Virus record (IMG/VR): IMGVR_UViG_3300046167_000912
Source of the DNA: an uncultured virus (IMG/VR IMGVR_UViG_3300046167_000912)
Taxonomy: Duplodnaviria > Heunggongvirae > Uroviricota > Caudoviricetes
Length of the DNA: 54,508 nucleotides
Direction: 5' to 3' (one strand)
The position numbers and the translations under genes were made by a program. Positions within the stretch are counted from its first letter, which is position 1. Every line of letters starts with the position of its first letter. The notes beneath the pieces were generated by a model. It searched no databases. It was not told where the DNA came from and saw only the letters and a program-made list of their open reading frames with translations. Below are positions 3,001 through 54,508 of the stretch, one piece after another.

Positions 3001-4452
3001 GGCTCTGTGGCTTCTACCTATCTTGATGATGTCAGTACCACTTCAAGGTATTTGATGACAGGCACAGTTGAAGCTCAGGACGAGGTCTCAATATCTGTCG
3101 CACTCAACAAGAGTGTAGGAGACACCGTGTCCTGCACGGATGAAATCTCTATTACACCATCGCTCTCTCCCGTAGAAATAGGAGATGCCGTGAGTGCTAG
3201 TGATGAAGTGGATACATCATACTCACTCAGCATGGTATCCCTCGAAGATGTCGTAAGTGCTAGTGATGAAGTAGATATTACTTTAAATGAACCCATAGGG
3301 CCTCTTAATGTAGAAAGCCAATTAAGCTTCACAGACGAGGTGGTAATTGTGGAGCGTGCTGAAGTATCCAGCTCCCTATCTTTGTCTGATGAAGCAAACA
3401 CCTCTATAGGAGAGATTGTTACGCCCTCCCTCATACTTGGAATTAAGTATAATGACTTCGCATTTGCCGACAACGAGCTGTTCTCTATATACAAGGGATC
3501 AATGGATACTCTTGTGTACCCCGATGTCTTTGCAATACAGCCAGACTCAAACAGCATTAGCCCTGTTGTAGTGGCTGAAGACAGTAAGGAGATCAGGATA
3601 AGTGCGGCTCTAGCAGACACTAGCTACAGTAACGCCAATGATGATGCTAACCTGAGAATAGGTAGCTTAGAGTATGACACAAATTATACCTTATACGCCT
3701 ATACCGAGTTTTTGGACAGCTCCCCTGATATCTCCGCAGCATTCAGGGCAGGGTCTTCTGCCCTAGACCCCTCTGCTTTCTTGTTCGGGAAAGGATATAA
3801 CGACCTAATGCCTGGTAATCCCTCTTCAGGAGACTCTGGGAAATACTATTTGCACACTTTCCGTATTCGAAGCTCGGATGATGTCGTTGTTTTCAACGCA
3901 GATAATCCGAACACCTTCCCTTTCGGCTTCTCTTCAAATGCGAGGCTGTATATGCACTTTAAGTTCACACACTCTGTCTCAGGAGACGATTCGGCAGTAT
4001 TTAGACTTAGGGAAGCGAAATCGGAAGCCACGTTCTCTAGTCCTGACGGGTCTCCTGCGGACACAACAGGTTGGGTGGCTCCTAGCATACACGCAAGTAT
4101 CGCAGGGTTATCTAACTCCGCACCCAGCGGAAATTACGTTGAAACGACCCTACCTAATTCTACGGTGAGTAACACGGACAATGACGCTCAGGTGTCTTGG
4201 GATTTAACCGTCGGCACAAGATACCACTTGCAAACCACTCAGTACGACAACAACCCTGACTTTGAAGTCTGCCTAGAAGCGAGAGCTGAGGACAGCGGGG
4301 CTTCTTGGGACACCACATACTCTTCGTCAGACACGCTCGAATACACAGAGCTTCTCACTAACAATGATGGTCTCGAGACCACATGGAACCACTTCTTTAC
4401 AATCCGTAAAGACGGGTTCATCATCTGGGAGCAAGATCCTTCTGGGTCTTAA
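4..4452 (+). CDS. Large virion structural protein (fibre/baseplate appendage) with an acidic repeat stalk; probably 5'-truncated by the window edge
   Basis: 1482 aa ORF, frame open to base 1; S/D/E/V/T-rich repeats; upstream of tail-collar-like genes. Confidence 0.7.
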   Translation: MYYPSLLGYEGDAVNPPLKPYGYRVSLSASVVTVDSQVLKQGLVKFRLTSNPWTTRREISYFTESFEAIGNNADVLDLPSNFQKKVLKTHSGVPIISSDFILKVNGVVLEDFFLDVGKNKISSTGAFARGDDIEITYPKASSEVRLFRELNNLEITLNATRPVRSVSLSGRGGDSQRVISTTPPLSYVLNSVAGVLPLTQSEKTSTYSVQNSDILNTRNQNLNSTFTLNRGSLNQNLSQDQVYAPATKTLTATKSEIFFTQLGFIPSFVYSVVDQNAISYTFKVTQTSLILDGYTSPVTLTISAVSSMPLNLEQDWFKGERLAEGQAFLAKKSTLGLPDLLEDRPQDIIQNPLGIDRDRNIIANRVVKELGHRGEYAFYEDEVASYNLNGSSGFLNDLNIMSYKDEMLHQDPSLYILGPRTETETSTVNTIPTYLFFNYLFLNTFGGDSHYFSIYRVGLDGVKYYQTITPRADSNGFSAVEEYPNLPAPNGAPLAYRFVDDGSGGGFNLNYSNGDLADNFLAEVNASFNHIPNQTYFIELFMEEDGGGADSLFFFSSGSDASIVLGASWDTSNETYRLDDAFGGGLGVTYYYEVLFATNPGEVVSFDITLDEFPAYPKDPENIGLTHDILEVAYYAEDVFPTPTLGFDSNVNFMPSSPDGSTPYFRQVEDELAFDAVAEHGLINLVSDNESGLTFSSLVSASLFLRPSSVDEIIATPEDEVGVALRYQIPNLEEEISLSDEIEYTYDLGNVLIEDDLFLDDEVSTHLEYLAPLLESDASLSDEVTARITSFKVDSNSSISDEVGTIYSFTPSSVGDSSPAPSDVVTTTFSYQTPELNTDVPVLTDGVSIRTPSVSLSSLLELSDEVSASYSLSSVHVESSLGFSDTVSILPNYQPVTLDDDYPLPTDDVIDSLSLLTSDTVFISDEVDTSYLLSNIAIEDNVTVDDETTVVFRYTPISVESSNASISDGTEESLSLFYTDTTSLSDEVSTQYNYASVSEGSVASTYLDDVSTTSRYLMTGTVEAQDEVSISVALNKSVGDTVSCTDEISITPSLSPVEIGDAVSASDEVDTSYSLSMVSLEDVVSASDEVDITLNEPIGPLNVESQLSFTDEVVIVERAEVSSSLSLSDEANTSIGEIVTPSLILGIKYNDFAFADNELFSIYKGSMDTLVYPDVFAIQPDSNSISPVVVAEDSKEIRISAALADTSYSNANDDANLRIGSLEYDTNYTLYAYTEFLDSSPDISAAFRAGSSALDPSAFLFGKGYNDLMPGNPSSGDSGKYYLHTFRIRSSDDVVVFNADNPNTFPFGFSSNARLYMHFKFTHSVSGDDSAVFRLREAKSEATFSSPDGSPADTTGWVAPSIHASIAGLSNSAPSGNYVETTLPNSTVSNTDNDAQVSWDLTVGTRYHLQTTQYDNNPDFEVCLEARAEDSGASWDTTYSSSDTLEYTELLTNNDGLETTWNHFFTIRKDGFIIWEQDPSGS
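2100..3420 (+). repeat. Degenerate ~20-22 aa acidic coding repeats ([S/T]D[E/D/G]V core)
   Basis: Recurrent LSDEV/ISDEV/ASDEV/PTDDV units; DNA 17-mer agtgctagtgatgaagt at 3193 and 3256 (63 nt period); boundaries approximate. Confidence 0.8.
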
Positions 4453-41532: not shown

Positions 41533-41841
41533 ACCGAAGTCTCTAACCGCAAGGGCTAGATCTCGGTCTAGGCTACTTGGCACGACAAAGGTGTTTCTGT
41601 AAAGGTCAAGATCGGGGCGATCATACGCGACCTCGATTTGCTCAAGGACTTCTAAGTCAATAGGACTGCAACAACCTTCATCTAAATCTCCGTCAGATCG
41701 CCCTTCTATCTTCTCTTCTGAGACAACGGAGTGATCAAACTCTTGAGACTCCCCCTCTTTCTCTTTACGCTTGAGTGGCTTAGAAACCTCTTCGCCACAA
41801 GAAATGGATAGGGTTAAAAGAATAAGAATAAGGTGTCTCAT
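41518..41841 (-). CDS. Putative lipoprotein
   Basis: MRHLILILLTLSISC signal peptide II-like; AAGGAG RBS. Confidence 0.65.
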   Translation of the reverse strand: MRHLILILLTLSISCGEEVSKPLKRKEKEGESQEFDHSVVSEEKIEGRSDGDLDEGCCSPIDLEVLEQIEVAYDRPDLDLYRNTFVVPSSLDRDLALAVRDFGLGLE

Positions 41842-41941
41842 GAGTTGCTCCTTTCAAGACAAATGAGTAGATAAGGACTAGGGCTTTGTAACCAAAACCT
41901 GTTATATGTCAACTACTACTTACCTTAAAACCTTACGCCCC

Positions 41942-42403
41942 TCAGATACCGTCTATGGGATGCCTAAACGCGTACTCTCGCCTCTTCTGATACTCAAGAA
42001 ATGCCCTAGTCACCTCTACCATGTCCCTGTATTCCCAAACCACATCTTGAGTGGGGTCTCCCTCAATATCCAGACCCTCCTCGTCAGGGTCGGGGAGGTC
42101 AGTTAAGACTTTTGCGAGGATATGAGTTTCCCCCTGTGCTAAGGCTTTAACTACCCTGTGACAACCATCCACAATCTTACCCTCATGCACTAAGATAGGG
42201 TAAGAGAGATCCGCTGATAGACATCTATCTATATGCTGAGAAAGATGAGTTCGACCCCAACTCCAAGAGTCAAGGAAACCCGCAGGGATCTCCCAACACG
42301 ACGTTTTGAGATGCTTAGAAAGACCCCACAGAGTCTCCACACTCCAAGAGAGACGCAAATCTCCTTTGACTGTACTGTACGTGTGGCTCATGCTAATAAC
42401 CAC
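41942..42403 (-). CDS. ParB/sulfiredoxin-like N-terminal domain protein
   Basis: ADLSYPILV...IVDGCHRVVKA motif; start may be ATG 42391. Confidence 0.7.
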   Translation of the reverse strand: MVISMSHTYSTVKGDLRLSWSVETLWGLSKHLKTSCWEIPAGFLDSWSWGRTHLSQHIDRCLSADLSYPILVHEGKIVDGCHRVVKALAQGETHILAKVLTDLPDPDEEGLDIEGDPTQDVVWEYRDMVEVTRAFLEYQKRREYAFRHPIDGI

Positions 42404-42575
42404 CCGTGTTAAACCAGCCTTTACCCTTCAAGATGAAGGCACTCTTGCTGATAAGCCTCTCTACCTCTTCGTGGTTGCACTTTGGGCAAGGTGGGTGAGG
42501 AGCACTCATTTTATGTAGGGCTTCAAACTCATGTTCACACTCTTTATTTTTACATCGGTAGTTATACGTCGGCAT
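42393..42575 (-). CDS. FmdB-family zinc-ribbon protein
   Basis: MPTYNYRC....C.HEFE......CPKC....VERLIS...FILKGKGWF. Confidence 0.88.
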   Translation of the reverse strand: MPTYNYRCKNKECEHEFEALHKMSAPHPPCPKCNHEEVERLISKSAFILKGKGWFNTGGY

Positions 42576-42795
42576 CGGGCTTACCTTTCTGTCGTTTCTC
42601 TTCTCGGGCAATCTTCTCTATCATACCTCTCAACTGCTCCAATTCTCTCTCTACCTTCTTCACTTTAAAAAAAAGGTCGTTATTGTCCCAAACAGAGCCC
42701 TTGTTCTTATAAGACTTGACGAAAGACCGTAAGTCCCTCAAGGACTGCGACAACCTATTTATGTCAGAAACATTGTTCAATAAGGAGCGGTTCAT
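42562..42795 (-). CDS. Small coiled-coil hypothetical protein
   Basis: ~77 aa, overlapping and co-oriented with the FmdB gene. Confidence 0.5.
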   Translation of the reverse strand: MNRSLLNNVSDINRLSQSLRDLRSFVKSYKNKGSVWDNNDLFFKVKKVERELEQLRGMIEKIAREEKRQKGKPDADV

Positions 42796-43176
42796 ATGCA
42801 AACACCTTCCACTTTAAAATATACAGCGAGCAAGCTCATAAAGATATTTATCAAATCAGCTTCTCAGACAGAATTGAGTATCTCCTCAATGCCTGTTCAC
42901 ATAGCTTACCAGAAAGATGGTCTAGCTGTACTCGATACTTTGGTAGACCCCGATTGGCTTAGTGCCATTAACAATTTGTATCCTAATAGAATGTTCTTGT
43001 GGTATTACCGCCAAGAGTGGGATCAGATAATCTGCCACATCTTTGAAAGCGAATACGATTACCCCATCACATTCTCCCTTGATGGGAAAGACCCTGTCAG
43101 CTCAGACCCCATAGAAATAGATTTCTTCGAGGTCAACCCTGATCTTGCCTCCTGTAAATTTGTGAGGGTTCACTAG
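42796..43176 (+). CDS. Hypothetical protein
   Basis: 126 aa, AAGGAG RBS before ATG. Confidence 0.55.
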   Translation: MQTPSTLKYTASKLIKIFIKSASQTELSISSMPVHIAYQKDGLAVLDTLVDPDWLSAINNLYPNRMFLWYYRQEWDQIICHIFESEYDYPITFSLDGKDPVSSDPIEIDFFEVNPDLASCKFVRVH

Positions 43177-43185
43177 TTTATATAT
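43174..43185 (+). promoter_or_regulatory. Putative late promoter motif (TAGTTTATATAT)
   Basis: Shared motif, 31 nt upstream of ATG 43217. Confidence 0.5.
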
Positions 43186-43216
43186 GGTGAGACTTCTAAA
43201 TAAAAGGAGTATTCGC

Positions 43217-44794
43217 ATGGCTAGAACAGACCAAGATAAAAAAGAGATCTTCCGAAAGTGGAATGAACTCATCAATATGAACCAGAAGTCCCTAGATAGC
43301 TGGGCTAAAGACGAAGACCGCCTTCTAGCCTCCATTAACAGGTCAGAGGCAAAACAAGAGGGGGGCATTCAATCAGGATATGACTCCTTCCATAGGATCA
43401 AGAGAAGAAAAGGGAAGAAGTTCGAGGATTGGACAAGCCAAGACTTTGACAATGCTAGTCAAGAGATCGGGTTCAATAGTCGAATGATCGGCGGTAAACC
43501 AGGTGACACCGTGGAGGAGTCTGGGATGTCTAAGTGGGAGATCTCCCTCAAGAATTGGGGACACGACCCTAGCCTCAAGTCTAGTCCAGCACACAGTAAG
43601 TGGAAGTCTTGGAAGCAGAAGCACGCGAGTGTAGAAGCAATCAATAAAGAGTTCCAGAAGAGTGCTCTGATTCGAGTCGCTCGGAAAATTGAGGTCAAGA
43701 GACAGGTAATCGCCTCAATGGAAGAGACCGAGAAGAAGTCTCTTATTAAGAGGTTTCTGGGGTGGCTTGTGCTTAAGCTTAAAAAGTTCGGACGAGAACT
43801 ACCAAAGCAACTCTTCATACCTGAGATCCAAGCGGTAATCAGAGACCTTATTAAAACATCTCAGGACAAGGTACAAGTGCCTATACCTAAGACAACCTCT
43901 GAAAAAGCTCTGTTCAAAGCGTCTAAGGTCTTAGGTATCAACAGACTCATAGCAAACATCAGGGATATCTATGTCGCAGATACAGCAGAGTCTTTTGACA
44001 ATTTATCAAAAGTGGCAGGTGGAAGTCTCTATGATGAGATCATAGAGAAGATGACTTCTGCCGAAAGTGACCTTCTCGAATCTAAAGCTGGCTTAAGTGA
44101 AGAACTCATCGCTATCAGAGAGGATATGAGTAAGAAGAGTCCTTGGTATAACAGCAAGCTCGACAATGCGATTGAATACCTCAAAACTAGAATAGGCTAT
44201 CTCTATAACAGAGCCGCTTATTATGGCACTGTAGGTAATATCTTGTACAGAAAAGCTGTCATCAAGTTGGCAAGGACTTATGAGTCTCTGATGTTCAAGC
44301 TCTCAGAGGTAAAAGACTCTAAGATATACGGAGTCAAGCTCCTGATGATCGCTGTCAAAGTTGGAGCCATCGCTGCCGTCTACGGCCTACTTTGGAAAAA
44401 GATGACCTTGTGGCAGGCTTCTAAATACTTTTTTGCATCAGGAAAGGCTTCCTTGGCCCTTATAATACTCAAGCAGATTATCCCTACCTTCCTAGCCACA
44501 GGCAGTTTTAAAGTAACGGCTTCAAGTGTTAGGAAAGCGGGTATCATGTTAGGCGTTATACCTCTGCATGTCTTCAATAAGTTCCTAGACTTAGCTGATT
44601 TCTTAGCCTATCTAGCTAAGACAGGATATGGTTGGGTCGTTGACAGATTGAAAGCTGGCTGGGATAAGCTCCCCAGCCTCCAAAGAACAGCCACTGAAGA
44701 AATCAGAGCCATCTTAAGAAGAGCTCACGAAGATCCTATATACAAGAGACAACTTCTACTTGAATACAAAATGGAACTCCGTAAGTGTCTGTAA
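43217..44794 (+). CDS. DUF3140-like domain fused to a helical/hydrophobic C-terminal region
   Basis: INMNQKSLDSW...SG..S..RI...KWEISLKNWGHDP matches the DUF3140 signature (VNM...L..W...SL.NWGHDP); AAGGAG RBS before ATG 43217. Confidence 0.7.
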   Translation: MARTDQDKKEIFRKWNELINMNQKSLDSWAKDEDRLLASINRSEAKQEGGIQSGYDSFHRIKRRKGKKFEDWTSQDFDNASQEIGFNSRMIGGKPGDTVEESGMSKWEISLKNWGHDPSLKSSPAHSKWKSWKQKHASVEAINKEFQKSALIRVARKIEVKRQVIASMEETEKKSLIKRFLGWLVLKLKKFGRELPKQLFIPEIQAVIRDLIKTSQDKVQVPIPKTTSEKALFKASKVLGINRLIANIRDIYVADTAESFDNLSKVAGGSLYDEIIEKMTSAESDLLESKAGLSEELIAIREDMSKKSPWYNSKLDNAIEYLKTRIGYLYNRAAYYGTVGNILYRKAVIKLARTYESLMFKLSEVKDSKIYGVKLLMIAVKVGAIAAVYGLLWKKMTLWQASKYFFASGKASLALIILKQIIPTFLATGSFKVTASSVRKAGIMLGVIPLHVFNKFLDLADFLAYLAKTGYGWVVDRLKAGWDKLPSLQRTATEEIRAILRRAHEDPIYKRQLLLEYKMELRKCL

Positions 44795-45117
44795 ACCCCT
44801 CCTACTTCTTACCCATACTAGGGCTCCTAGTCTCCTGTGTTATCTTCTGGTACAAAGGTAATGCAAAGACCCTCTACGGTCTTGAGTGGTCACCTTTCAG
44901 ATGGTGGTTGACGACTAGCCTGATCACTAGCTATATGACCCTCCACGCATGGTGGAAGCTCGTAGAGCTCGGTGACGTATGGAAAGCAGGAGTCATCTGG
45001 GGCATGTGTAGCATCACCATTGATCTCGCACTGAATACTTGGTATTACGGGTTCAATTGGAAGGGCATACTCGCTCTCTGTCTCGTCGCAATCGCCGCCG
45101 CAATTGTCCATAGTTGA
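44785..45117 (+). CDS. Small 4-TM membrane protein (SMR/DMT-like size and topology)
   Basis: 110 aa, four hydrophobic W-rich segments; GTG start overlapping the upstream stop. Confidence 0.65.
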   Translation: MSVNPSYFLPILGLLVSCVIFWYKGNAKTLYGLEWSPFRWWLTTSLITSYMTLHAWWKLVELGDVWKAGVIWGMCSITIDLALNTWYYGFNWKGILALCLVAIAAAIVHS

Positions 45118-45118
45118 A

Positions 45119-46321
45119 ATGAATACAGGCTTGAAACGTATGTCGATGAAGTTTAAAAACAAAAGCCTTGAGGATTCATTAACTCAAGCAAGTGTCAATC
45201 TTAACAACAAAACCCGCAGCAATTTGTTCAGTTGGCGAGGTCAATTCTCACCTCAACTCATCGAGTTGCTATTGACCTGCTACTCGTCCGAAAATGACGT
45301 AGTGTTCGACCCCTTCTTAGGAAGCGGAACCGTCCTCATGGAAGCCGCGATGCTGGGATTAGAAGCCTACGGATGTGAGATTAACCCTGCCGCCGTATCT
45401 TTTGCAAGCGTATACGAACTGATCAACCACCCCAAGGAAGAAGTTGCTCAGGCGATTGCCTATGTAGAGCACTTAGTATCTGATTATACTAACGACCCTT
45501 CTCTCTTGGATCATGGCGATCTGTCTGCCTTTCAAGTTGTATTGATTGAAGCTCTTGAGAAATCAGATAGCAAAGTACGAAGTACCATCCTAACAGCACT
45601 AATCACAGGAATGGACTTTAAAGCAAAAAAGTTAAACATAAAGAGAATTAACAATGTTTGGGGTACACTACGCTCCAATATTCAAAAGCTCCCCTTGTCT
45701 AATAAGAAACTAAAGTGCTACAACCGAGACTCTCGCTGCGTCCCATTAAAGGGTGGAACCATTGACTTTGTCGTAACATCCCCCCCTTATATAAATGTCT
45801 TTAATTACCATCAAAACTACAGAAAAGCAGTTGAGCTTATCGGTGCTGACATATTGAAAGTAGCCAAGTCTGAGATTGGAGCCAATAGAAAATTTCGTCA
45901 AAACAGGTTTTTAACAGTTGTTCAATACTGCATGGATATTTCCCAAGTTTTTATTGAGCTCAGGCGAGTCTGCAAACCTGATGCGAAGTTAATATTCATT
46001 GTTGGGCGTGAGTCTAATGTTAGAAAGACTGCTTTCAAGAACGCGGAGTTGATCTCAGAAGTAGCAACTATATGTGGCTTTGAATTAGTCGGTCAACAGC
46101 ACAGGGTTTTTCAAAACAAATTTGGAGATAAAATTTATGAAGAGATCCTCCGCTTCAGTATAAAAAAAATACATATCTCCGACTACATCAATGCAGCTAG
46201 AGAGGTTGGCAGAAAAGCCCTTCGCAAAGCTATACCTTTAGCAGACAAACAAGTTCGAGAGGATCTCCTTACAGCTTATGAAAAGTCATTGAGAATTAGC
46301 CCCTCACCTATACTCTATTAG
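45119..46321 (+). CDS. Orphan amino-DNA methyltransferase, alpha motif order, probably N4-cytosine
   Basis: VFDPFLGSGT (motif I) precedes VTSPPY (motif IV); no adjacent endonuclease; start uncertain (45119/45140/45146). Confidence 0.88.
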   Translation: MNTGLKRMSMKFKNKSLEDSLTQASVNLNNKTRSNLFSWRGQFSPQLIELLLTCYSSENDVVFDPFLGSGTVLMEAAMLGLEAYGCEINPAAVSFASVYELINHPKEEVAQAIAYVEHLVSDYTNDPSLLDHGDLSAFQVVLIEALEKSDSKVRSTILTALITGMDFKAKKLNIKRINNVWGTLRSNIQKLPLSNKKLKCYNRDSRCVPLKGGTIDFVVTSPPYINVFNYHQNYRKAVELIGADILKVAKSEIGANRKFRQNRFLTVVQYCMDISQVFIELRRVCKPDAKLIFIVGRESNVRKTAFKNAELISEVATICGFELVGQQHRVFQNKFGDKIYEEILRFSIKKIHISDYINAAREVGRKALRKAIPLADKQVREDLLTAYEKSLRISPSPILY

Positions 46322-46323
46322 TC

Positions 46324-46366
46324 TCCCTTTTGGTTTAGCTATGGACAATTGCTAAACCAAAAGGGA
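46324..46366. terminator. Perfect 16-bp inverted repeat; probable terminator between the MTase and the polymerase remnant
   Basis: TCCCTTTTGGTTTAGC-11 nt-GCTAAACCAAAAGGGA. Confidence 0.65.
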
Positions 46367-46577
46367 TTTGATAGACCGACCCTCATGCTGTACATTCCAT
46401 TCTTCTCTCAATACTTTCCTAGACTTGATCCATTGCACCAACTCCTCCACAGTGTTAGGGTCTAAAACCGATACTTGATAGACTTCGATGTGAGGCTGTT
46501 CTACAACTTCCTCTTTCGGTTTCTCTACCTCAATAGGCTTCTCCCCCCCCCAAAGATTTTGACCAACTCATCGTCGC
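46352..46577 (-). pseudogene. Diverged remnant of the 3' end of the DNA polymerase gene
   Basis: Colinear with 48151-48374; encodes DDELVKIFGG/EKPIEVEKPKEEVVEQPHIEVYQVSVLDPNTVEELVQWIKSRKVLREEWNVQHEGRSIKSLLV*; +2 frameshift in a C9 run. Confidence 0.93.
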
Positions 46578-46605
46578 AATCGCCGCCCTGATCGTTCATA
46601 GTTGA
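46571..46605 (+). repeat. Diverged copy of the last 35 nt of the 4-TM gene (45083-45117)
   Basis: tcgtcgcaatcgccgccctgatcgttcatagttga vs tcgtcgcaatcgccgccgcaattgtccatagttga (30/35 identical; VAIAALIVHS* vs VAIAAAIVHS*). Confidence 0.9.
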
Positions 46606-46610
46606 TATAT
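46599..46610 (+). promoter_or_regulatory. Putative late promoter motif (TAGTTGATATAT)
   Basis: Shared motif, 32 nt upstream of ATG 46643. Confidence 0.45.
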
Positions 46611-46642
46611 TGAAACCTTTCTCAAAACAGAGAGGTTTCAAT

Positions 46643-48055
46643 ATGAAAAAAGACATAAAAGAGAAGAAGCTACTCGCCTTTGAGAGAAAAGCCACCGCGT
46701 CTTTTAGGGCGGTCGCACGCAAGGTCTTTAAGCACAGACTTAAGGCGAAGGAGGAGTACCCTCGAAGAGATAGGGCTTCTTTGGATAAGAGATACAAATT
46801 CCTTGTTCGACTCCTAGACTCTGATCCTCAGGTTGCCCAATTTATGGATCAGTTCATCGGAGATAAAGAAGCAAATCCTAAGTCGAAAAAAAGGAGGCGA
46901 GAGACCGTGAAGATCTTCGCCTCTTACTTGCTTAACAGAGTCACCCTGAAAGATGCCTCAACTCTGTTTTACCCTATAGCTCAAGAGTCTTTCAGTGTAG
47001 TGGAGCTCAGCAAGAGACAAAACAAAGTCAAAAGCACATTCCCAGCCGAGATCCAAGCTTTCCTCCCTAAGTCTATTGTGATTGACACGGACAAAAACAA
47101 GTACATCACTAATATAAATGACCTGTTCGTGAATGAGAAGTACGACCTGTCAGAGAAGATAAAGGTTCAAAGAAAGCTGATTCTCAAATACAACACCATT
47201 GTTAAAAAAATAAAGAAAGACCTGAAGTCTCCAGATGAGATTACGAAGCTGGCCGCCCTTATCACCTCGATAATCATGGAGACAGGTATACGACCTGGCA
47301 AGATAGGCAACCATACAATACGTGTCATGGAAGATAAAGAAGTTGAAGTAGAAACCTTCGGTGCAGTGTCCCTCAACTCTGAACACGTCCGCTTCATAAG
47401 AGAAGACTTCGCGGTGCTCAACTTTGTGGGCAAGAAAGGCGGGACAAACATCGCTAACATTAGAGACAGGCACGTCCTATCTATCTTGCAAGGGTATATA
47501 GATAACGCCTTCACCAGAGGGTCTAAGTACATATTCACCACGTCGAGCGGTGAGCAGTTTGATTACAAACATCTATCAGCATACTTCAATAAGAACTTCA
47601 AAGGCTTCAAGGTCACGGATCTCAGAAAGCTCAAGGCAACCCGAGCGGTGTTCGACTCCTTGCAAGAAGAGAAAGACGCCCTCTACGCAAGAATAAGAGA
47701 GATCGCAGAACCCGAAGTTGAGAAACTCAAGCAACTTGTCATTCAAGAAGTTGTGGAGACGATTAACCTCGCCCATGAGAAAGCTCAGGCCGCCCTCAGC
47801 CATATGGACTCCTCTACTACACAAGACGCTTACATCAACCCTCAAGTCCTACTTAGGTTCTTGAGTACAGCGAAGGTAGAGAGTCCCTTCAGAGATTACG
47901 TCCTTAAAGGAAAGACAAAGCTAGAGTTCGACCCACTCATGTTCGTCAGAGAGGCCGAAAAGATGAGGCCTTCCAAAAAGGCTAGTGCTTGGATGAAACC
48001 TAAGCGTCTCAGGAAAAGGCACTTTCCTAGTCACCTTGTCGGCGTTCAACACTAA
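46643..48055 (+). CDS. DNA topoisomerase IB (poxvirus/bacterial type)
   Basis: GIRPGK (Arg), NFVGKKG (Lys), DLRKLKAT (Arg), LSH...AYINP (His, Tyr) match vaccinia TopIB R130/K167/R223/H265/Y274; AGAGGT RBS before ATG 46643. Confidence 0.82.
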   Translation: MKKDIKEKKLLAFERKATASFRAVARKVFKHRLKAKEEYPRRDRASLDKRYKFLVRLLDSDPQVAQFMDQFIGDKEANPKSKKRRRETVKIFASYLLNRVTLKDASTLFYPIAQESFSVVELSKRQNKVKSTFPAEIQAFLPKSIVIDTDKNKYITNINDLFVNEKYDLSEKIKVQRKLILKYNTIVKKIKKDLKSPDEITKLAALITSIIMETGIRPGKIGNHTIRVMEDKEVEVETFGAVSLNSEHVRFIREDFAVLNFVGKKGGTNIANIRDRHVLSILQGYIDNAFTRGSKYIFTTSSGEQFDYKHLSAYFNKNFKGFKVTDLRKLKATRAVFDSLQEEKDALYARIREIAEPEVEKLKQLVIQEVVETINLAHEKAQAALSHMDSSTTQDAYINPQVLLRFLSTAKVESPFRDYVLKGKTKLEFDPLMFVREAEKMRPSKKASAWMKPKRLRKRHFPSHLVGVQH

Positions 48056-48150
48056 TAAACCCAAGAAGAAGGCCGTGAGAGATCTGAAGGAAGGCAGACC
48101 CTTTTTGTGGGAACCGCGTTTCTAAGAGAGCCCTGATTCTTTAATGGTGA

Positions 48151-50748
48151 TTAAACCAAAAGGGCTTTAATAGACCGACCCTCATGCTGTACATCCCATT
48201 CTTCTCTCAAGACCCTCCTTGATTTGATCCACTGTGCCAGCCTCTCCACAGTTTCTGGATCTAAAGCCGACACTTGGAAGACTTCGATGGGGGGTAGGTC
48301 TGCGACCTCCTCTTTCGGTTTCTCTACCTCAATAGGCTTCTGCCCCCCAAAGATTTTGACCAACTCATCGTCGCCCTCTCCCTGCTCGATGTCTTTGAGA
48401 TCATAAGGGACAGTCCAAGTCTTACCGAGTTCCACATCGACGAGGAGAGGGATAGGCCAATTCATCTTTTGAATGACTGTGTTCTTGGTCATCAGGTTAG
48501 AGATGACTTCAATGGCTTCTTTGAGGATGTCCTTGTGGATCTCAAAAACAATCTCGTCATGCACTGTGAGGATCATAAGGAGTTTCTTTTGCCAACCCAT
48601 CTCAAGAACCTTGTCATAGATTAGTGCCATAGCCAGCTTAGTTACGTCTGCAGATGTTCCTTGAATAGGTCCGTTGAGAGCCTTGCGTTCATCTTTCGAC
48701 TTGAAGCGGTACTCGTCAGACTTGATATCAGGGAGTGGCTGTATTCTACCCATTGCAGTTTTCACATAACCATGAGCTCTCGCAAACTCATGTTGACGCT
48801 TCCACCATCTGATGAGACCCGAATATGTCTTTGTGAAGACTCGGTACTTCTCGTCTCCCTCTTTCGCACCACAACCGATAGATCGCTGTACTGCCTTCCC
48901 TGTGCCTCCATAACAAAGGGCGAAGTTACACGCTTTACCGTTGCCTCGCAGAACCTTCCAATCCTCTCTCTGCTTTGCACTATCGCCATAGAAGGCGACT
49001 GCCGTACCTGTATGGAGATCCCCGATCTTATCTGACCCGCAGGTGCAGATTGACGGAGGGGGCAGAGGAAACCCATCTTCACCCTCTGTCATATCATAAG
49101 CCTTGCCACAGTCACTACAGGAGTAGAATGCGTTGACCCATTTGGGTTCTCTGCTCAAGTTGGTCACAAGCCTAAGCTCCACGCCCGCATAGTCAACGGC
49201 GGCGAGCCAGAAGTCTTTATCGCGTACTGTGATGCAGTCCCTCATAAGTCTAATGCAGTCAGGCTTACTCTTGTCATAGGTAGCTGGGATACCCTGAAAA
49301 GGAACTCGGCATCCGCCATCTCTCACTTTCCAAGGCTGTTTGTTTGTCTTACAAGAAAACCTGCCCGTATCAGCAGACATCTGGTCAAACTTAGGCTTCA
49401 GAGTCCCGTCAATACCTACATCCTCGACAAAAGGAATCAGGTATTGACCAAGAGCTTTAGCTAGATTTCGGAAGGACTTTATCTTCCCCATGAAAGGGAA
49501 GTCTTTGGATGCGTTCTCTACTACAGATTCGAGAATGTCCCTAGCTGTTGCGACCTGCCCAGATTTCTCCGTAACGGTTAGACCTGGAACACTCATCTCT
49601 CTGAAAAGAAGACCTAGTTGCTGGGGGCTTAAGATGTCATAAACTGAGGGGAATTCAATGTCCTCTAGCCCTTCTGCTTTCCTTCTTGGGTCTGAACTCA
49701 AGCGAGGGACTTCTTTACGGATCTTCACTTGAGAATCAGGGTAGTTGCGAAGAGCTTCCTTTCTCGCCTCATCTACTCGAGTCTTGTAACTCATGCCTTC
49801 TACTTCCATAGGGTCAAACAAGTTAACACCTTTGATCTCACCCTTAAGAATACGGAGGTAGTTCGGTGTAATGTCACGACCCAAGATATCATTTGCACCG
49901 CCGTAGACCTCAAGAAGAGAATTAAACCATAACTTTTGCCCCTCCTGACAGAAGGTAAGGGCTCTCTTCCTATCGACGTAGACTCTGTTTCTCATCATCC
50001 ATCGAGTAGCTACTAGGACTTTCTTTTCAAGTGTATAGATGAAAGAAGAATGATGCACCGCCTCCGTGTATTCTTTGTTGAGTATTTCAAAAATACCCAC
50101 AGTGTTCATAGCGTCAGCTGCGGCATATAAAACACAAGCTGACCAACTAGGATCTAACTTAGAGTAATCTTTCACATTGCTCTTTGGGATGAGGTCTTCT
50201 AACTCAATCATCTCCCTCTTGAGTATCCCTTTTGACATCTGCTTCAGACCACGTCCGCCCTTTTCTCTAGGGTTTAGCAAGTACTTCAAGATCTTAGTAT
50301 CATGCCATAGTCGAGGAGTATTCCACCTCTCCGCACCAAGAGCGTCAACGTAGCCGTTAAACTCAAGGAACTCCATGTCAAAACCTGCATTCTGTAAGAC
50401 AGGCTGTGCTTTAACAGACACATCAAAGAGCCTCTTTAATGCACCACCCATGAGTCTCCAAGAAATATTGTGACTTGACCCCTCACTGTGAGTTAAAGGG
50501 AAATAATAGCCCTTGTCCTTGCTTGGAGCTAGGCAGATGCCTACGATCTTATCTTTGGTAACCCCGTCAAAGACCCTCTGATCTAAGCCCGTTGTTTCCA
50601 CATCAAGACCATAGAAGTCTGAATTAATGCATTCCTCGATGCACCCCTCAAGGTTATCTGTCGTCCCCAAGATGAGTTCGCAATCACTCATCCACTCTTT
50701 AGGCTCAATCTTTGGCCTGCGGAGTCCTTCAAGCATATCTGTAAACAT
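48151..50748 (-). CDS. polA: Family A DNA polymerase with 3'-5' exonuclease
   Basis: Exo I LDVETTGL, Exo II NAGFD, Exo III YAAAD; motif A DYAGVELR, motif B R...KACNFALCYG (Phe at the E. coli 762 position), motif C VHDE. Confidence 0.96.
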   Translation of the reverse strand: MFTDMLEGLRRPKIEPKEWMSDCELILGTTDNLEGCIEECINSDFYGLDVETTGLDQRVFDGVTKDKIVGICLAPSKDKGYYFPLTHSEGSSHNISWRLMGGALKRLFDVSVKAQPVLQNAGFDMEFLEFNGYVDALGAERWNTPRLWHDTKILKYLLNPREKGGRGLKQMSKGILKREMIELEDLIPKSNVKDYSKLDPSWSACVLYAAADAMNTVGIFEILNKEYTEAVHHSSFIYTLEKKVLVATRWMMRNRVYVDRKRALTFCQEGQKLWFNSLLEVYGGANDILGRDITPNYLRILKGEIKGVNLFDPMEVEGMSYKTRVDEARKEALRNYPDSQVKIRKEVPRLSSDPRRKAEGLEDIEFPSVYDILSPQQLGLLFREMSVPGLTVTEKSGQVATARDILESVVENASKDFPFMGKIKSFRNLAKALGQYLIPFVEDVGIDGTLKPKFDQMSADTGRFSCKTNKQPWKVRDGGCRVPFQGIPATYDKSKPDCIRLMRDCITVRDKDFWLAAVDYAGVELRLVTNLSREPKWVNAFYSCSDCGKAYDMTEGEDGFPLPPPSICTCGSDKIGDLHTGTAVAFYGDSAKQREDWKVLRGNGKACNFALCYGGTGKAVQRSIGCGAKEGDEKYRVFTKTYSGLIRWWKRQHEFARAHGYVKTAMGRIQPLPDIKSDEYRFKSKDERKALNGPIQGTSADVTKLAMALIYDKVLEMGWQKKLLMILTVHDEIVFEIHKDILKEAIEVISNLMTKNTVIQKMNWPIPLLVDVELGKTWTVPYDLKDIEQGEGDDELVKIFGGQKPIEVEKPKEEVADLPPIEVFQVSALDPETVERLAQWIKSRRVLREEWDVQHEGRSIKALLV

Positions 50749-50816
50749 GTGTTTCCTTAATGTCGGTTTGTTATCCCTCTCTTATAGATTACAGCCCAGA
50801 CATTAATATAAACTTG

Positions 50817-51491
50817 TCACCTTGATCTGCGAAACCGTTCTATCTCTTCTCGGTCACTAGGACTTTCAAGATCCTCGAAGTTAACACTTTGCTCTTCTTG
50901 AATCTTATCTTCAAGCTTGGAGGTCAATTCATACAAGAACTTCACAGGTGTGAGCACCGCTTTGAAGATAAATAGCGGGAACTTGATGAAAACAAACCCT
51001 AAGAAGGAGGCAAAGACTGACGGCAAAGAATCCGCAATTATAAGGAAAAAAATGTAGCCCATTCCAAAAATACAAATACAAGCAATAACTAGGACAGCAA
51101 AGCCGAAGGTGGACGCCGTGAGCCAAGCTAATGTCTTAATCAGCCAAGCGGGTGCCCCAAGGAAAGTCAAAAAGCTGGCTTTTTTACTTAGTGTATCCTC
51201 ATTTAAGAGACCTCTCGCAATCTCTTCTCTGTTTTCAAAAATATCAACGAGCTGATTGAATTGGTTCTTATGGGGCTTGGAAGAGATTTTATCTAAGACG
51301 ATGTCTCTCGACCTTATGACCTTACGGTTCTTGGCCTGCTTGACTACATTAGCTAGACCAACTTCGCGGATCGCACTCTTGATAACGGACGCTTCTTTTT
51401 TGTGTTTCTTCAAAGCACCCGCAACCAAACTATTGAAAGAGGCGACTTTATGCCTCCTCACAACTCTTTGTACGGCTAACTTTCTATTCAT
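50817..51491 (-). CDS. Basic protein with a long hydrophobic C-terminal half
   Basis: AGAGGT RBS before ATG 51491 (MNRKLAV...); 2-3 TM-like segments. Confidence 0.7.
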   Translation of the reverse strand: MNRKLAVQRVVRRHKVASFNSLVAGALKKHKKEASVIKSAIREVGLANVVKQAKNRKVIRSRDIVLDKISSKPHKNQFNQLVDIFENREEIARGLLNEDTLSKKASFLTFLGAPAWLIKTLAWLTASTFGFAVLVIACICIFGMGYIFFLIIADSLPSVFASFLGFVFIKFPLFIFKAVLTPVKFLYELTSKLEDKIQEEQSVNFEDLESPSDREEIERFRRSR

Positions 51492-51529
51492 ATCACACCT
51501 CTTTCTGTTATAGTCACCTGCAGTGTACG

Positions 51530-51541
51530 ATAAAAAAGTTA
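51530..51541 (-). promoter_or_regulatory. Putative late promoter motif (TAACTTTTTTAT)
   Basis: Shared motif, 38 nt upstream of ATG 51491. Confidence 0.5.
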
Positions 51542-51556
51542 TTAAGGAGATCGACA

Positions 51557-52645
51557 ATGCCAGAATTAAGTTTTAACTATGTAACATACGGACTTCTGAG
51601 CTTTTTCATGTTGTCCGTAGGAGGCAACGCTTGGACTGTGTACAAGACCACAAAGATGGAGAGTACTATACAGGAGCAACTAAGTGGGAAGCTCGCGAAG
51701 ACCGCTCAAGATATCGCATCTCTGAATGAGAGCGTTGGGACAATAACGTCTAAGATGGTCAAAAGATCAGAACTCGACAGCTTTGCGGACGAAATCATAG
51801 GGGGTCTAAGCGAGAAAACTCAATCCTCCATAAGAAGTTATATGGGTAAGACAGGAGCTCGTATAGATGATATCAGTGAGAGATTCGTTAAGATGGAAGG
51901 GGATTTAGATAAAGGTACCGCAAGGATCGGGAGTAGGACAACTAGGGCAAGAGAGCCTAAACCTAAGCCTCCTGAAAGCTGGAAAGGTGTCACCCGTGAC
52001 GACCAACACAAATGCGAAGACCACCCAGAGAGATGTGAGCCATTTCAGTTCACATGGGAATCCCCATTCTCCATAAACGGCAGACCTATCTATACGTTCT
52101 CTAGTGAGAACCTATGGGAAAAGCGAGGCAAGGTCTCTCTTAATCTAGCTTTCAAGGTAGTTGCGATGACCTTCAGAGAAGGGGATCGCCTTGGAGACGG
52201 AGCCGTTCAAAATCAAGGCGTTCACGTCATGGCAGGATACATCAGCCCTAAAGGGGGTTTTATCCCTATACCTGGATTAGAGAGTAAACTCCTCAGAGGC
52301 GACAGTAACCTCGACCCCAGATTGAAATACGTACCGAAAGTAGATGCTGGAAGAGAGCGACTTGGCTTGAGTTTATTCGAGCCGAGTCTCTTGGTCGGGT
52401 CTACATATCAAGGAGGGGGCTTTGGGCTGTCTGTGGGGGGGAGCTTTGTGAACTTCTATAAGGGTGACTACAGAATAGGAGCAAACCTTGTTTTAACTGA
52501 AGACACCCCCTATCTCGGGGCGAATGTAACATGGCACCCTAGAATCGCGGGTAAGAATCTCAACATCGCACCAAGTCTAGGGTGGGTCATAGATAAAGAG
52601 GGGGGCAACACTTGGTCTCTGGGAGTCCACTTTCAAGTGTGGTGA
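51557..52645 (+). CDS. Envelope protein: N-terminal TM/signal, coiled coil, C-terminal amphipathic beta-strands
   Basis: AAGGAG RBS; hydrophobic aa 8-29; alternating G/aromatic strands ending WSLGVHFQVW. Confidence 0.7.
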   Translation: MPELSFNYVTYGLLSFFMLSVGGNAWTVYKTTKMESTIQEQLSGKLAKTAQDIASLNESVGTITSKMVKRSELDSFADEIIGGLSEKTQSSIRSYMGKTGARIDDISERFVKMEGDLDKGTARIGSRTTRAREPKPKPPESWKGVTRDDQHKCEDHPERCEPFQFTWESPFSINGRPIYTFSSENLWEKRGKVSLNLAFKVVAMTFREGDRLGDGAVQNQGVHVMAGYISPKGGFIPIPGLESKLLRGDSNLDPRLKYVPKVDAGRERLGLSLFEPSLLVGSTYQGGGFGLSVGGSFVNFYKGDYRIGANLVLTEDTPYLGANVTWHPRIAGKNLNIAPSLGWVIDKEGGNTWSLGVHFQVW

Positions 52646-53031
52646 ACCTTCCTCTTCAAGTATTTCTCAAAGCACCTCCTGTCTTTAGGGTGAAGCTCTA
52701 GTTCGAGCACCTCTGGAATTGAAATCCACATATAATCACTGTGTTCACGGTCTAGGCGAGGCTTAAACTCCATTCCAACCTCGCCTATGAACATAGTGTA
52801 GAACCTGCTCTCAGTGTGGTCTGAGACTCTTATGAAGGGAACTGATATCCCTATCTCCTCTTCTGTCTCTCTAATTGCTGTCTCATAAGCACTTTCATCT
52901 TTCTCCGAAGTACCTCCTGGAAAGTCCCAATACCCAGAGAAAGGGTCTTCCTTGTAATGAGCCCTTTTTAAAACAAGGGTCTTCTTACCGCACACAACCA
53001 TAATCCCAGCTCCCATATCGTATGTCTCCAT
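52633..53031 (-). CDS. NUDIX hydrolase
   Basis: GGTSEKDESAYETAIRETEEEIGI fits the Nudix box; AAGGAG RBS before ATG 53031. Confidence 0.93.
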   Translation of the reverse strand: METYDMGAGIMVVCGKKTLVLKRAHYKEDPFSGYWDFPGGTSEKDESAYETAIRETEEEIGISVPFIRVSDHTESRFYTMFIGEVGMEFKPRLDREHSDYMWISIPEVLELELHPKDRRCFEKYLKRKVHHT

Positions 53032-53210
53032 TCTTTTTTCTCCTTTGTTCGAGTCATCACTGTTGGACAACAGTATAAGAAGATCGTTATCAAAGGAATG
53101 AGAAAATAAAAGAAAACGGAACTCAGATCTTATAAGTAAGTGGTCTTATTGGGTCTATTGGACCATGCATACGATTGTTTACAAAGTGTGAAACACGAAC
53201 AAGGATTAAC

Positions 53211-53816
53211 ATGAATATTAAAGAAACGGCAGTTAACGTCTTCTCACGGAGACACACCCCAGATTCCCCTCTCAGCCACTCAACTCTCGAACATGAAAAA
53301 GTCGCTGAGCTACTTCGGGTCGCGACCTCAATCCGAGATGGTTATGAGCCAGATAACTATGATAGTGGAGGTCGAGCCATTGTTGCCACACTCCCTTCTG
53401 AATACAATGAGCACTTCTTCAGCGGAGTCGCCATTGTCGAAGAGGGAGAAGAAGTACTTGAGGGGTTCAGGTCGAGAGTAGAGGGAGAATTGCCTCGACC
53501 CTACCGCGAGGTAATCCGAACCCAGAAGCCGAGTGCGAAGGCAGTAGAGCTTATCTTCTACAACTCAAAAGCACTAGCCTTAACAGGGAGTAATGAGCTT
53601 CCTATAGACGACGCGAATTGGGAACTCGTCTCAATTAATGCGTATCCCGATACCAACAACGCATTCCCCCCAATCCAACCATACGCTTTAAAAGCGAACT
53701 ACTATGGACTCGACGGCGGGACACCTACAAACTACACCGAAGAAGATTTTTTGGATCTCCTCACGATATCAGAAGCCTATTGGCATAACAAGGCTATGAT
53801 TCGAGTCGAGCCTTGA
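53211..53816 (+). CDS. DUF3228-like protein
   Basis: DGY...RVEGELP...ELIFYN...WELVSINA...PIQP...N..G..GGT...YW pattern recalled for DUF3228. Confidence 0.55.
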   Translation: MNIKETAVNVFSRRHTPDSPLSHSTLEHEKVAELLRVATSIRDGYEPDNYDSGGRAIVATLPSEYNEHFFSGVAIVEEGEEVLEGFRSRVEGELPRPYREVIRTQKPSAKAVELIFYNSKALALTGSNELPIDDANWELVSINAYPDTNNAFPPIQPYALKANYYGLDGGTPTNYTEEDFLDLLTISEAYWHNKAMIRVEP

Positions 53817-53840
53817 TGATGCCCTGCTATTCGAGGCTCG
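53807..53840. terminator. Hairpin between convergent genes
   Basis: CGAGCCTTGA-14 nt-TCGAGGCTCG (one G:U pair). Confidence 0.4.
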
Positions 53841-53843
53841 TAG

Positions 53844-54482
53844 TTACACACCCCTCTCATATTTGATGACCTCATCAACTAGGCCGAAATCAAGACACTT
53901 CTTAGGGTTCATGTATAGATCTCTCTTAAGGAGTGACTTAAGCTCTTTCTTTTTGATGTTTGTGTGCTTGAGGTAAATAGACTCTAGCATCTCCATCAAA
54001 GAGTCCATAGACTCCTTTTCGTCAGAGAGATTCTCGTAAGTACCCCAGACACCCGTGCTTACTTGGTGGATAAGCATGAAGCTGTGTTCTGTGATATGCC
54101 TTCGAGCCCCCACGCAAGACAAGACAGTCGCGGCGGACGCGGCAGAACCTTCCACATAAGTAAAAACGGGTACTTCAGACTCTAGTATATGACTCGCTCC
54201 CGCGAGACCACTAAAGACACACCCGCCAGGAGAGTTGATGTGAAGATGGATAGCTGGGACACTAGGGAGGCTGAGGTCGGTCATAAGATTAATGATCTGC
54301 TGGCCGACTGACCTAATAGCAATACCCATGTCCATGATAGACTTAGGTGTGATCGCTTGATAAAGGTAAATATGGTTCTCACAAACTGTAATATCCCCAT
54401 AATAAGGAGATCCGTCTGTGGCCATAGGCTGACGTGAAGTAGGGGAGTTCTCGCCCTCATAAATTCTTCTGTTGGCTCTCAT
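53844..54482 (-). CDS. clpP: ClpP-family serine protease
   Basis: INSPGG, AASAAT (Ser), MLIHQ (His), RDLYM (Asp). Confidence 0.9.
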   Translation of the reverse strand: MRANRRIYEGENSPTSRQPMATDGSPYYGDITVCENHIYLYQAITPKSIMDMGIAIRSVGQQIINLMTDLSLPSVPAIHLHINSPGGCVFSGLAGASHILESEVPVFTYVEGSAASAATVLSCVGARRHITEHSFMLIHQVSTGVWGTYENLSDEKESMDSLMEMLESIYLKHTNIKKKELKSLLKRDLYMNPKKCLDFGLVDEVIKYERGV

Positions 54483-54508
54483 TACAAGTCTTCCTCTCGA
54501 ATTACATA

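Follow-up and report, generated by a model that had tools for sequence, protein, structure and literature searches.

The window analysed here, a stretch of 54,508 nucleotides (nt) from an uncultured virus of the Caudoviricetes (IMG/VR record IMGVR_UViG_3300046167_000912), carries between a short four-transmembrane (4-TM) gene and the gene of a family A DNA polymerase (pol) a tandem locus, in which an orphan DNA methyltransferase (MTase) and a type IB topoisomerase (TopIB) are stitched together by a remnant of the pol 3′ end and a second 4-TM gene end. We hold with good confidence that two ordinary recombination steps account for this arrangement, namely a duplication junction formed at a 7-nt microhomology of native sequence and a cassette swap between diverged relatives, with protection of CCTNAGG sites as the benefit that would maintain it.

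Native and foreign pieces of the locus

On the plus strand, the 4-TM gene (44785-45117; 110 amino acids, hydrophobic, without a Pfam family) is followed by the MTase gene (45119-46321), a hairpin (46324-46366), the pol remnant (46353-46577, minus strand), a 4-TM gene end lacking its start (46571-46605), the TopIB gene (46643-48055; 470 amino acids) and intact pol (polA; 48151-50748, minus strand, 865 amino acids, PF00476), which is the order that a first-pass annotation had described. As it had also reported, the word TCGTCGC lies at three places on the plus strand (45083, 46571 and 48368, with no others in the whole window), the last at 48368-48374 within the remnant's partner in intact pol (48152-48374, minus strand), and it is exactly at 46571-46577 that pol homology gives way to 4-TM homology.

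The most informative comparison is with L004, a TopIB-only form of the locus that equals the window minus 1488 nt: its sequence corresponds to 41701-45120 plus 46571-54508 at 99 % identity, joined precisely via a perfect 17-nt direct repeat whose copies (45083-45099 and 46571-46587) begin with the 7-nt core. The left flank differs from L004 at 27 positions in 3.4 kb, none of them across 44777-45099, and the 4-TM end at 46571-46605 is identical to L004. This end, annotated earlier as a diverged copy, is hence native, whereas the intact gene has the foreign end (45100-45117), being native to 45099 and donor-type in its last six codons, the left switch from native to donor sequence lying at or before 45099. 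Nor does ancestry switch at the 7-nt junction as had been supposed, since both flanks are 99 % identical to the TopIB-only form and the remnant beside the junction is native.

The remnant itself is a mosaic. Over its 225 nt it is 85 % identical to pol, but divergence is concentrated in the distal 156 nt (46353-46508, minus strand, without a stop; 30 mismatches), whereas the part beside the junction (46509-46577, minus strand) has one mismatch in 67 (p = 2e-4); the linker in this latter region looks variable among relatives. The annotated +2 frameshift was found in the C9 run at 46543-46551, where CCC replaces a single G of pol. Over the last 51 codons, the ratio of nonsynonymous to synonymous divergence (dN/dS) between remnant and pol is 0.20 (dS 0.65, dN 0.13; Fisher p = 1.3e-4), which agrees with the earlier view that the copies diverged as functional alleles and indicates purifying selection on this part of the remnant.

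Two proteins reveal what the donor looked like. P0198 is a donor-type polymerase with 84 differences from native pol in 865 amino acids; of the residues that tell the two apart, the remnant has the native form at 4/4 in 806-815 and the donor form at 8/9 in 816-836. Beyond 836 it is native at 2 positions, and at 4 positions it is unlike both proteins. P0208, a donor-type 4-TM protein, ends like 45100-45117, and the donor-type 4-TM protein is only 83 % identical to the native one. Given the L004 flanks, the mosaic remnant and these residues, the foreign DNA is, on sequence comparison, a single patch of 1409 nt (45100-46508), comprising the relative's six 4-TM codons, the MTase gene, the hairpin and the distal 156 nt of pol, and the 7-nt junction joins native pol on its left to native 4-TM sequence on its right. 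The patch is thus bounded by switches within genes shared with the relative, as in homeologous exchange, and the joint keeps one copy of a word found at both parental ends, with both sides from one genome, as in a microhomology-mediated tandem duplication. The GC content of the MTase gene is 0.41, that of the window 0.46. Among the matches listed, no TopIB or MTase match lies on a contig of 8870 nt, the length of the contigs that encode P0198 and P0208, which fits a donor clade whose slot is empty or differently filled.

The resident of the slot can also be named. The native 4-TM end is kept by 8 of the 12 members of the 4-TM cluster, across several alleles, whereas the MTase cluster consists of one member on 6 contigs, and in L011, a relative at 61-71 % identity, the 4-TM gene stands directly before TopIB. 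From this adjacency, the L004 form and the spread of native 4-TM ends across alleles we infer that TopIB is the resident and the MTase the newcomer, and that the ancestral order in this phage species was 4TM-TopIB-pol. One sequencing run, X1, shows both branches at the 17-nt repeat, the MTase branch at a depth of 5.1 and the TopIB-only branch as a 43-nt piece at a depth of 2, which is weak by itself. L004 has, in addition, a 9-nt insertion in the spacer between TopIB and pol, at the equivalent of 48134.

The topoisomerase and the methyltransferase

The resident gene (PF01028) is predicted to fold as a type IB topoisomerase and not as an integrase. Its structural model has a predicted local distance difference test score (pLDDT) of 89, and all 20 fold matches listed before the first tyrosine recombinase are type IB topoisomerases (best E 2e-8 versus 2e-4). 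Residues R217, K264, R328, H387 and Y397, which we take by analogy to be the conserved Arg, Lys, Arg, His and Tyr of these enzymes, are invariant in 90/90 aligned homologs. The phage family to which it belongs comprises 116 related proteins with a large helical N-terminal part, its closest solved fold being Deinococcus TopIB. No relative was found in the named phages of INPHARED, and our literature search on jumbo and huge phages retrieved no description of such a family.

The acquired gene encodes a full-length N6/N4-type MTase (PF01555) with FxGxG and SPPY motifs in an open frame of 400 amino acids, to which homologs align from about Met10. Its closest homolog, 69 % identical, is from Endozoicomonas. 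The open reading frame (ORF) behind a 62 % homolog encodes a Bpu10I-family nuclease, and where at least 600 nt lie behind an MTase homolog, a homolog of this nuclease occurs somewhere in the locus in 63/68 metagenome and 70/77 genome loci; none was found in the 54,508 nt of the window, where the MTase is an orphan. The choice of the outer C:G in the CCTN half-site is suggested in PMC6326814 to depend on an R1-type Asp and Arg, and relatives blind to the central base have a Met. Aligned to BbvCI, the partner nuclease carries the R1-type Asp and Arg as well as the centre-blind Met, and the combination D-K-M-D-R, at positions which PMC6326814 links to a CCTN half-site with unspecified centre, is present in 122/124 partner nucleases from loci covering all five positions. 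A homodimer of such a nuclease would cut CCTNAGG, like Bsu36I, and CCTNAGG is accordingly the target that we predict for the MTase. Our search for a CCTNAGG methyltransferase producing N4-methylcytosine retrieved no literature.

The distribution of this word is consistent with the prediction. The window has 3 CCTNAGG sites where 14 are expected, making it the most depleted of the 64 palindromes of the 3-N-3 type (corrected p about 0.03); one of the three lies inside the TopIB gene (46826-46832). Among eight groups of relatives' loci, the word is absent from five (20 expected) and occurs once in a sixth (2.4 expected), and it is below control in 4/5 bacterial genomes carrying the MTase-nuclease system, GCTNAGC being so in 2/5. 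Other results count against this part of our interpretation: the remaining two groups, from more distant phages, are not depleted (6 versus 5.1 and 5 versus 4.2 expected), the word is not avoided in the genome whose homolog, at 63 %, is the closest of those tested (797 sites versus 587 for the control), and the target is itself deduced from residues of the partner nuclease assigned by modelling. On balance, selection against restriction at CCTNAGG is rather likely. The tandem would then persist because it retains TopIB and adds an orphan MTase that methylates CCTNAGG and shields the phage from a host nuclease of the Bsu36I kind. Restriction-type words are scarce more generally, as CCGG and GCGC are wholly absent from the window (about 173 and 161 expected, both strands) and GGNCC, CCNGG, GCNGC and GGCC are depleted as well, with relatives behaving alike; together this suggests strong restriction pressure on the phage family.

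Origin of the tandem

In our model, a slip at the 7-nt word that native 4-TM and native pol share at their ends would have produced a tandem-duplication junction with a 1.8-kb unit (46571-48374). Recombination with a relative (about 81 % identical in nucleotides over the pol tract) would have put that genome's MTase cassette in place of TopIB in the first copy, one crossover falling at or before 45099 within the 4-TM end and the other near 46508 within pol (codons 815/816). The two steps may also have come in the reverse order, the cassette being swapped into a sibling genome before the crossover at the 7-nt word, and both orders predict an identical sequence. The swap-first order, a modified form of what the first-pass annotation had proposed, has in our estimate slightly less than an even chance, and the duplication-first order slightly more; this faint preference comes from the lack of an MTase-only form and the extra TopIB depth in X1, both weak arguments. 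There, 46571-48337 has a depth of 7.3 versus 4.4-4.7 in the flanks (1.6-fold; crude Poisson p = 8e-4, assuming 2x150 pairs), possibly reflecting extra TopIB copies, although contig depth is a poor measure of copy number.

An older event seems to be recorded at the far end of the MTase gene. The hairpin (16 bp, perfect) has arms made of the donor pol's last bases, which are also the last of the remnant, and their inverted copy, and its fold is strong (z = -8.5; equally good in 0/200 shuffles), while terminator prediction did not call it. In its loop region (46339-46352), the first 14 foreign bases (45100-45113), which belong to the end of the donor 4-TM gene, recur perfectly in inverted orientation. 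Inverted pairs of at least 14 nt arise, position ignored, in 7/1000 resampled sequences and in 3/101 overlapping background windows, and it is therefore their placement at both ends of the MTase gene that carries the argument. Read on the minus strand, the 29-nt insert gives a 4-TM end whose stop overlaps the pol stop, as in an empty slot. We give an even chance to the idea that the hairpin and inverted 4-TM end are the scar of an earlier capture by template switching, in which the MTase of a bacterial type II system would have reached the donor lineage and left the inverted insert behind its stop codon. In the 3-1-4-2 event of the four-point model of short-range template switching (PMC5453318), a single inverted insert yields two inverted-repeat pairs, as here; unlike there, a 1.2-kb foreign gene separates one of the pairs, and the exact switch points depend on the sequence as it was before the event. 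A search for the empty 4TM-pol slot pattern returned 5 loci, one being the contig with the junction itself and the other four having no 4-TM or pol homolog. Integron attC sites and IS6-type ends were considered and rejected by eye.

These readings presuppose that the scar structure is real, which it is. A second viral contig, L003, contains the junction and is 99.9 % identical to the window over 44973-54508, and in the independent run X13 a record (20) bridges the junction from 46155 to 46740, 586 nt with zero differences and the C9 run intact, so that contigs cross the junction, as the first-pass annotation had asked of reads. Our bridging rule requires 31 letters on either side; X7 and X1 have junction-spanning pieces that fall below it, with short sides of 28 and 23 letters, and X10 bridges the left switch (44634-45233). 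Contigs of X1 lack the C9 version, but contigs drop variants and are uninformative in this respect. Run evidence consists of contigs, not raw reads, from 4 of 22 runs (X1, X7, X10 and X13) among the records listed. That an assembler merged two co-occurring strains might be argued from the presence of both alleles in one run (X1, records 2 and 3) and from the possibly shared source of the window, L003 and some runs; with these crossings, and with an overlap of 7 nt presumably too short to misjoin 31-letter words, we regard it as extremely improbable. A strict single illegitimate crossover, in which a diverged MTase-type genome supplied the left half and a TopIB-type genome the right, would explain the exact homology switch at the 7-nt word, and both a TopIB-only genome and a donor-type relative (P0198, P0208) exist, as this explanation needs. 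It fails because both flanks and both sides of the junction are native, the left flank being 99 % identical to L004 without a difference across 44777-45099 despite a donor-type 4-TM protein of only 83 % identity, so that at least three switches are required; we consider it highly improbable. Of the two single-cargo haplotypes expected on that view, 4TM-TopIB-pol exists (L004 and a short X1 contig) and 4TM-MTase-pol was not found, and the view can be rescued only by assuming, as MTase parent, a near-identical sibling already holding the donor patch.

Two mobile-element explanations can be judged by the same sequences. If the TopIB-like protein were a site-specific recombinase, a circle of 46571-48374 could have integrated at a 7-nt core in the pol 3′ end, its new gene end displacing the old one, and the product would look identical. 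Overlaps of 7 nt are typical of tyrosine recombinases, one homolog matches PF00589 weakly (E 2e-4, short of the cut-off) and some homologs are named integrases. Against this, the model of the protein matches type IB topoisomerases first, which weakens the proposal, no inverted arms surround the cores by eye, L004 has TopIB without a displaced pol end, and 4TM-TopIB is a resident pair in L011; an integrating circle is very unlikely. The vaccinia-type topoisomerase site is (C/T)CCTT; this word is absent at the 7-nt junction, and its single occurrence in a hairpin arm, among 25 in 3.5 kb, is no evidence. The perfect 14-nt inverted pair around the MTase gene, of a length rare in resampled sequences, could alternatively be read as the termini (45100-45113 and 46339-46352) of a small mobile element. 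Yet its left member is the coding end of a donor-type 4-TM gene, shared with P0208, its right member lies inside a hairpin built of pol sequence, such pairs occur in the background windows too, no transposase family matched in the 10 ORFs scanned, no second copy of a repeat-bounded MTase was present among the loci found, and the pol remnant would be left unexplained. This, too, we judge quite unlikely.

Our two-step account has its own difficulties, which weigh against it as follows. Neither intermediate was observed directly: no contig has two TopIB copies, the doubled TopIB being a depth hint in one run. No MTase-only genome was present among the viral contigs retrieved with the MTase (3 loci), with a 24-mer specific to the donor (1 locus, which is the junction contig) or with the donor-type 4-TM gene (11 loci), or among the best 80 of 257 viral loci found by pol alignment; nor was this haplotype among the best 80 of at least 547 metagenome loci (best 63 %) or in genome contigs (none for P0198, best 80 of 364 for the MTase), the records nearest to the window being possibly missing from these locus searches. 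A native linker with a donor tail occurs in 0/7 pol cluster members reaching the C-terminus, and donor 4TM-MTase-pol DNA was not found in the locus searches, although donor-type pol and 4-TM are known as proteins. P0198 is not the donor itself, as 4 positions of the remnant are unlike either protein and 3 are native-like, and beyond their both being on 8870-nt contigs nothing links P0198 to P0208. Gene conversion could have contributed the native 67 nt of the remnant. Finally, L004 might have arisen from the tandem by exact reversion instead of representing the ancestor; its 1 % divergence and the allele spread count against this.

The repeats seem to be active still. In the intact pol of L003, five bases at 48211-48223 are of the remnant type and a further one is private to this contig. 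The tract, equivalent to 48205-48223 and recurring in two other protein records, is most simply explained by gene conversion from the remnant, and R845K, which stems from it, is found in 3 of 12 cluster members. It is conceivable, if doubtful, that the tandem is a selected, reversible state holding both alleles, in which the 17-nt repeat would allow precise loss of the MTase, and the pol repeats would permit loss or multiplication of TopIB as well as passage of donor residues into the working polymerase. If so, a small accordion in a wild population would track the presence of a host CCTNAGG nuclease, and three nested scars would preserve, down to the single base, the route by which a bacterial methylase came, via a template switch, into a near-empty slot between convergent genes of a phage.

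Related systems, setting and significance

Each step has known counterparts. T4 amplifications (dmd-tifA) arise at microhomologies of 6-10 bp (PMC9391042) and share with our locus the tandem junction at such a word (7 bp here), the single copy of the word between units and a likely counter-defence benefit; unlike these, our two units carry different genes, one interior coming from a relative, and belong to wild populations and not to selection experiments. Lambda Red recombines DNA at 22 % divergence (PMC2327257), and our foreign patch likewise has on either side, in the conserved genes next to it, “shoulders” of about 80 % identity. In contrast to that mosaicism the exchange here was additive, not replacing; no recombinase of this phage was identified, with no search aimed at one. 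Lactococcal 936 phages carry protective orphan MTases from type II systems (PMC4190342). Our MTase resembles these in lacking a nuclease, in having homologs in bacterial MTase-nuclease pairs and in its expected protection, whereas it is an N4/N6-class enzyme paired with Bpu10I-family nucleases, from an uncultured marine phage and known here from sequence.

To judge from its long structural-type ORFs, the window probably belongs to a large tailed phage, and its relatives sit on viral contigs of about 300 kb. All or part of it was contained in 20 of the 22 runs listed, all from seawater or marine samples. A search for stretches of similar build gave no match. Elsewhere in the window, a 32-nt repeat pair (91 %) lies at 3183-3277 within a repetitive acidic ORF (4-4452). 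Convergent 4-TM and pol genes are also seen in seven distant loci (L106-L109, L111, L112 and L154), where 2.5-5.3 kb separate them; the genes that fill this space vary (ORFs from four loci), and the interval is thus variable across the family. These loci speak against the proposal that pol became a neighbour by inversion in this lineage; L011 and L104 may instead show the rearranged arrangement. In the 74 % relatives L102-L104, a different methyltransferase-like ORF (263 amino acids, SPPY motif) stands directly behind pol, and in the distant pol relatives L163, L166, L168 and L169 the match spans 3.2-3.8 kb versus 2.6 kb here, probably owing to inteins or introns.

Every step invoked is known and the locus is not a new system; it is a real, cleanly readable scar of known processes, that is, ordinary phage evolution unusually well preserved. 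Its value is that of a natural case, resolved to the single base, of additive gene gain, in which a probable counter-defence gene was gained and the resident gene kept, with both forms of the locus countable in public seawater data. It also draws attention to a phage family of type IB topoisomerases and yields a sharp and cheap prediction, CCTNAGG methylation, for a widespread family of MTases paired with Bpu10I-type nucleases.

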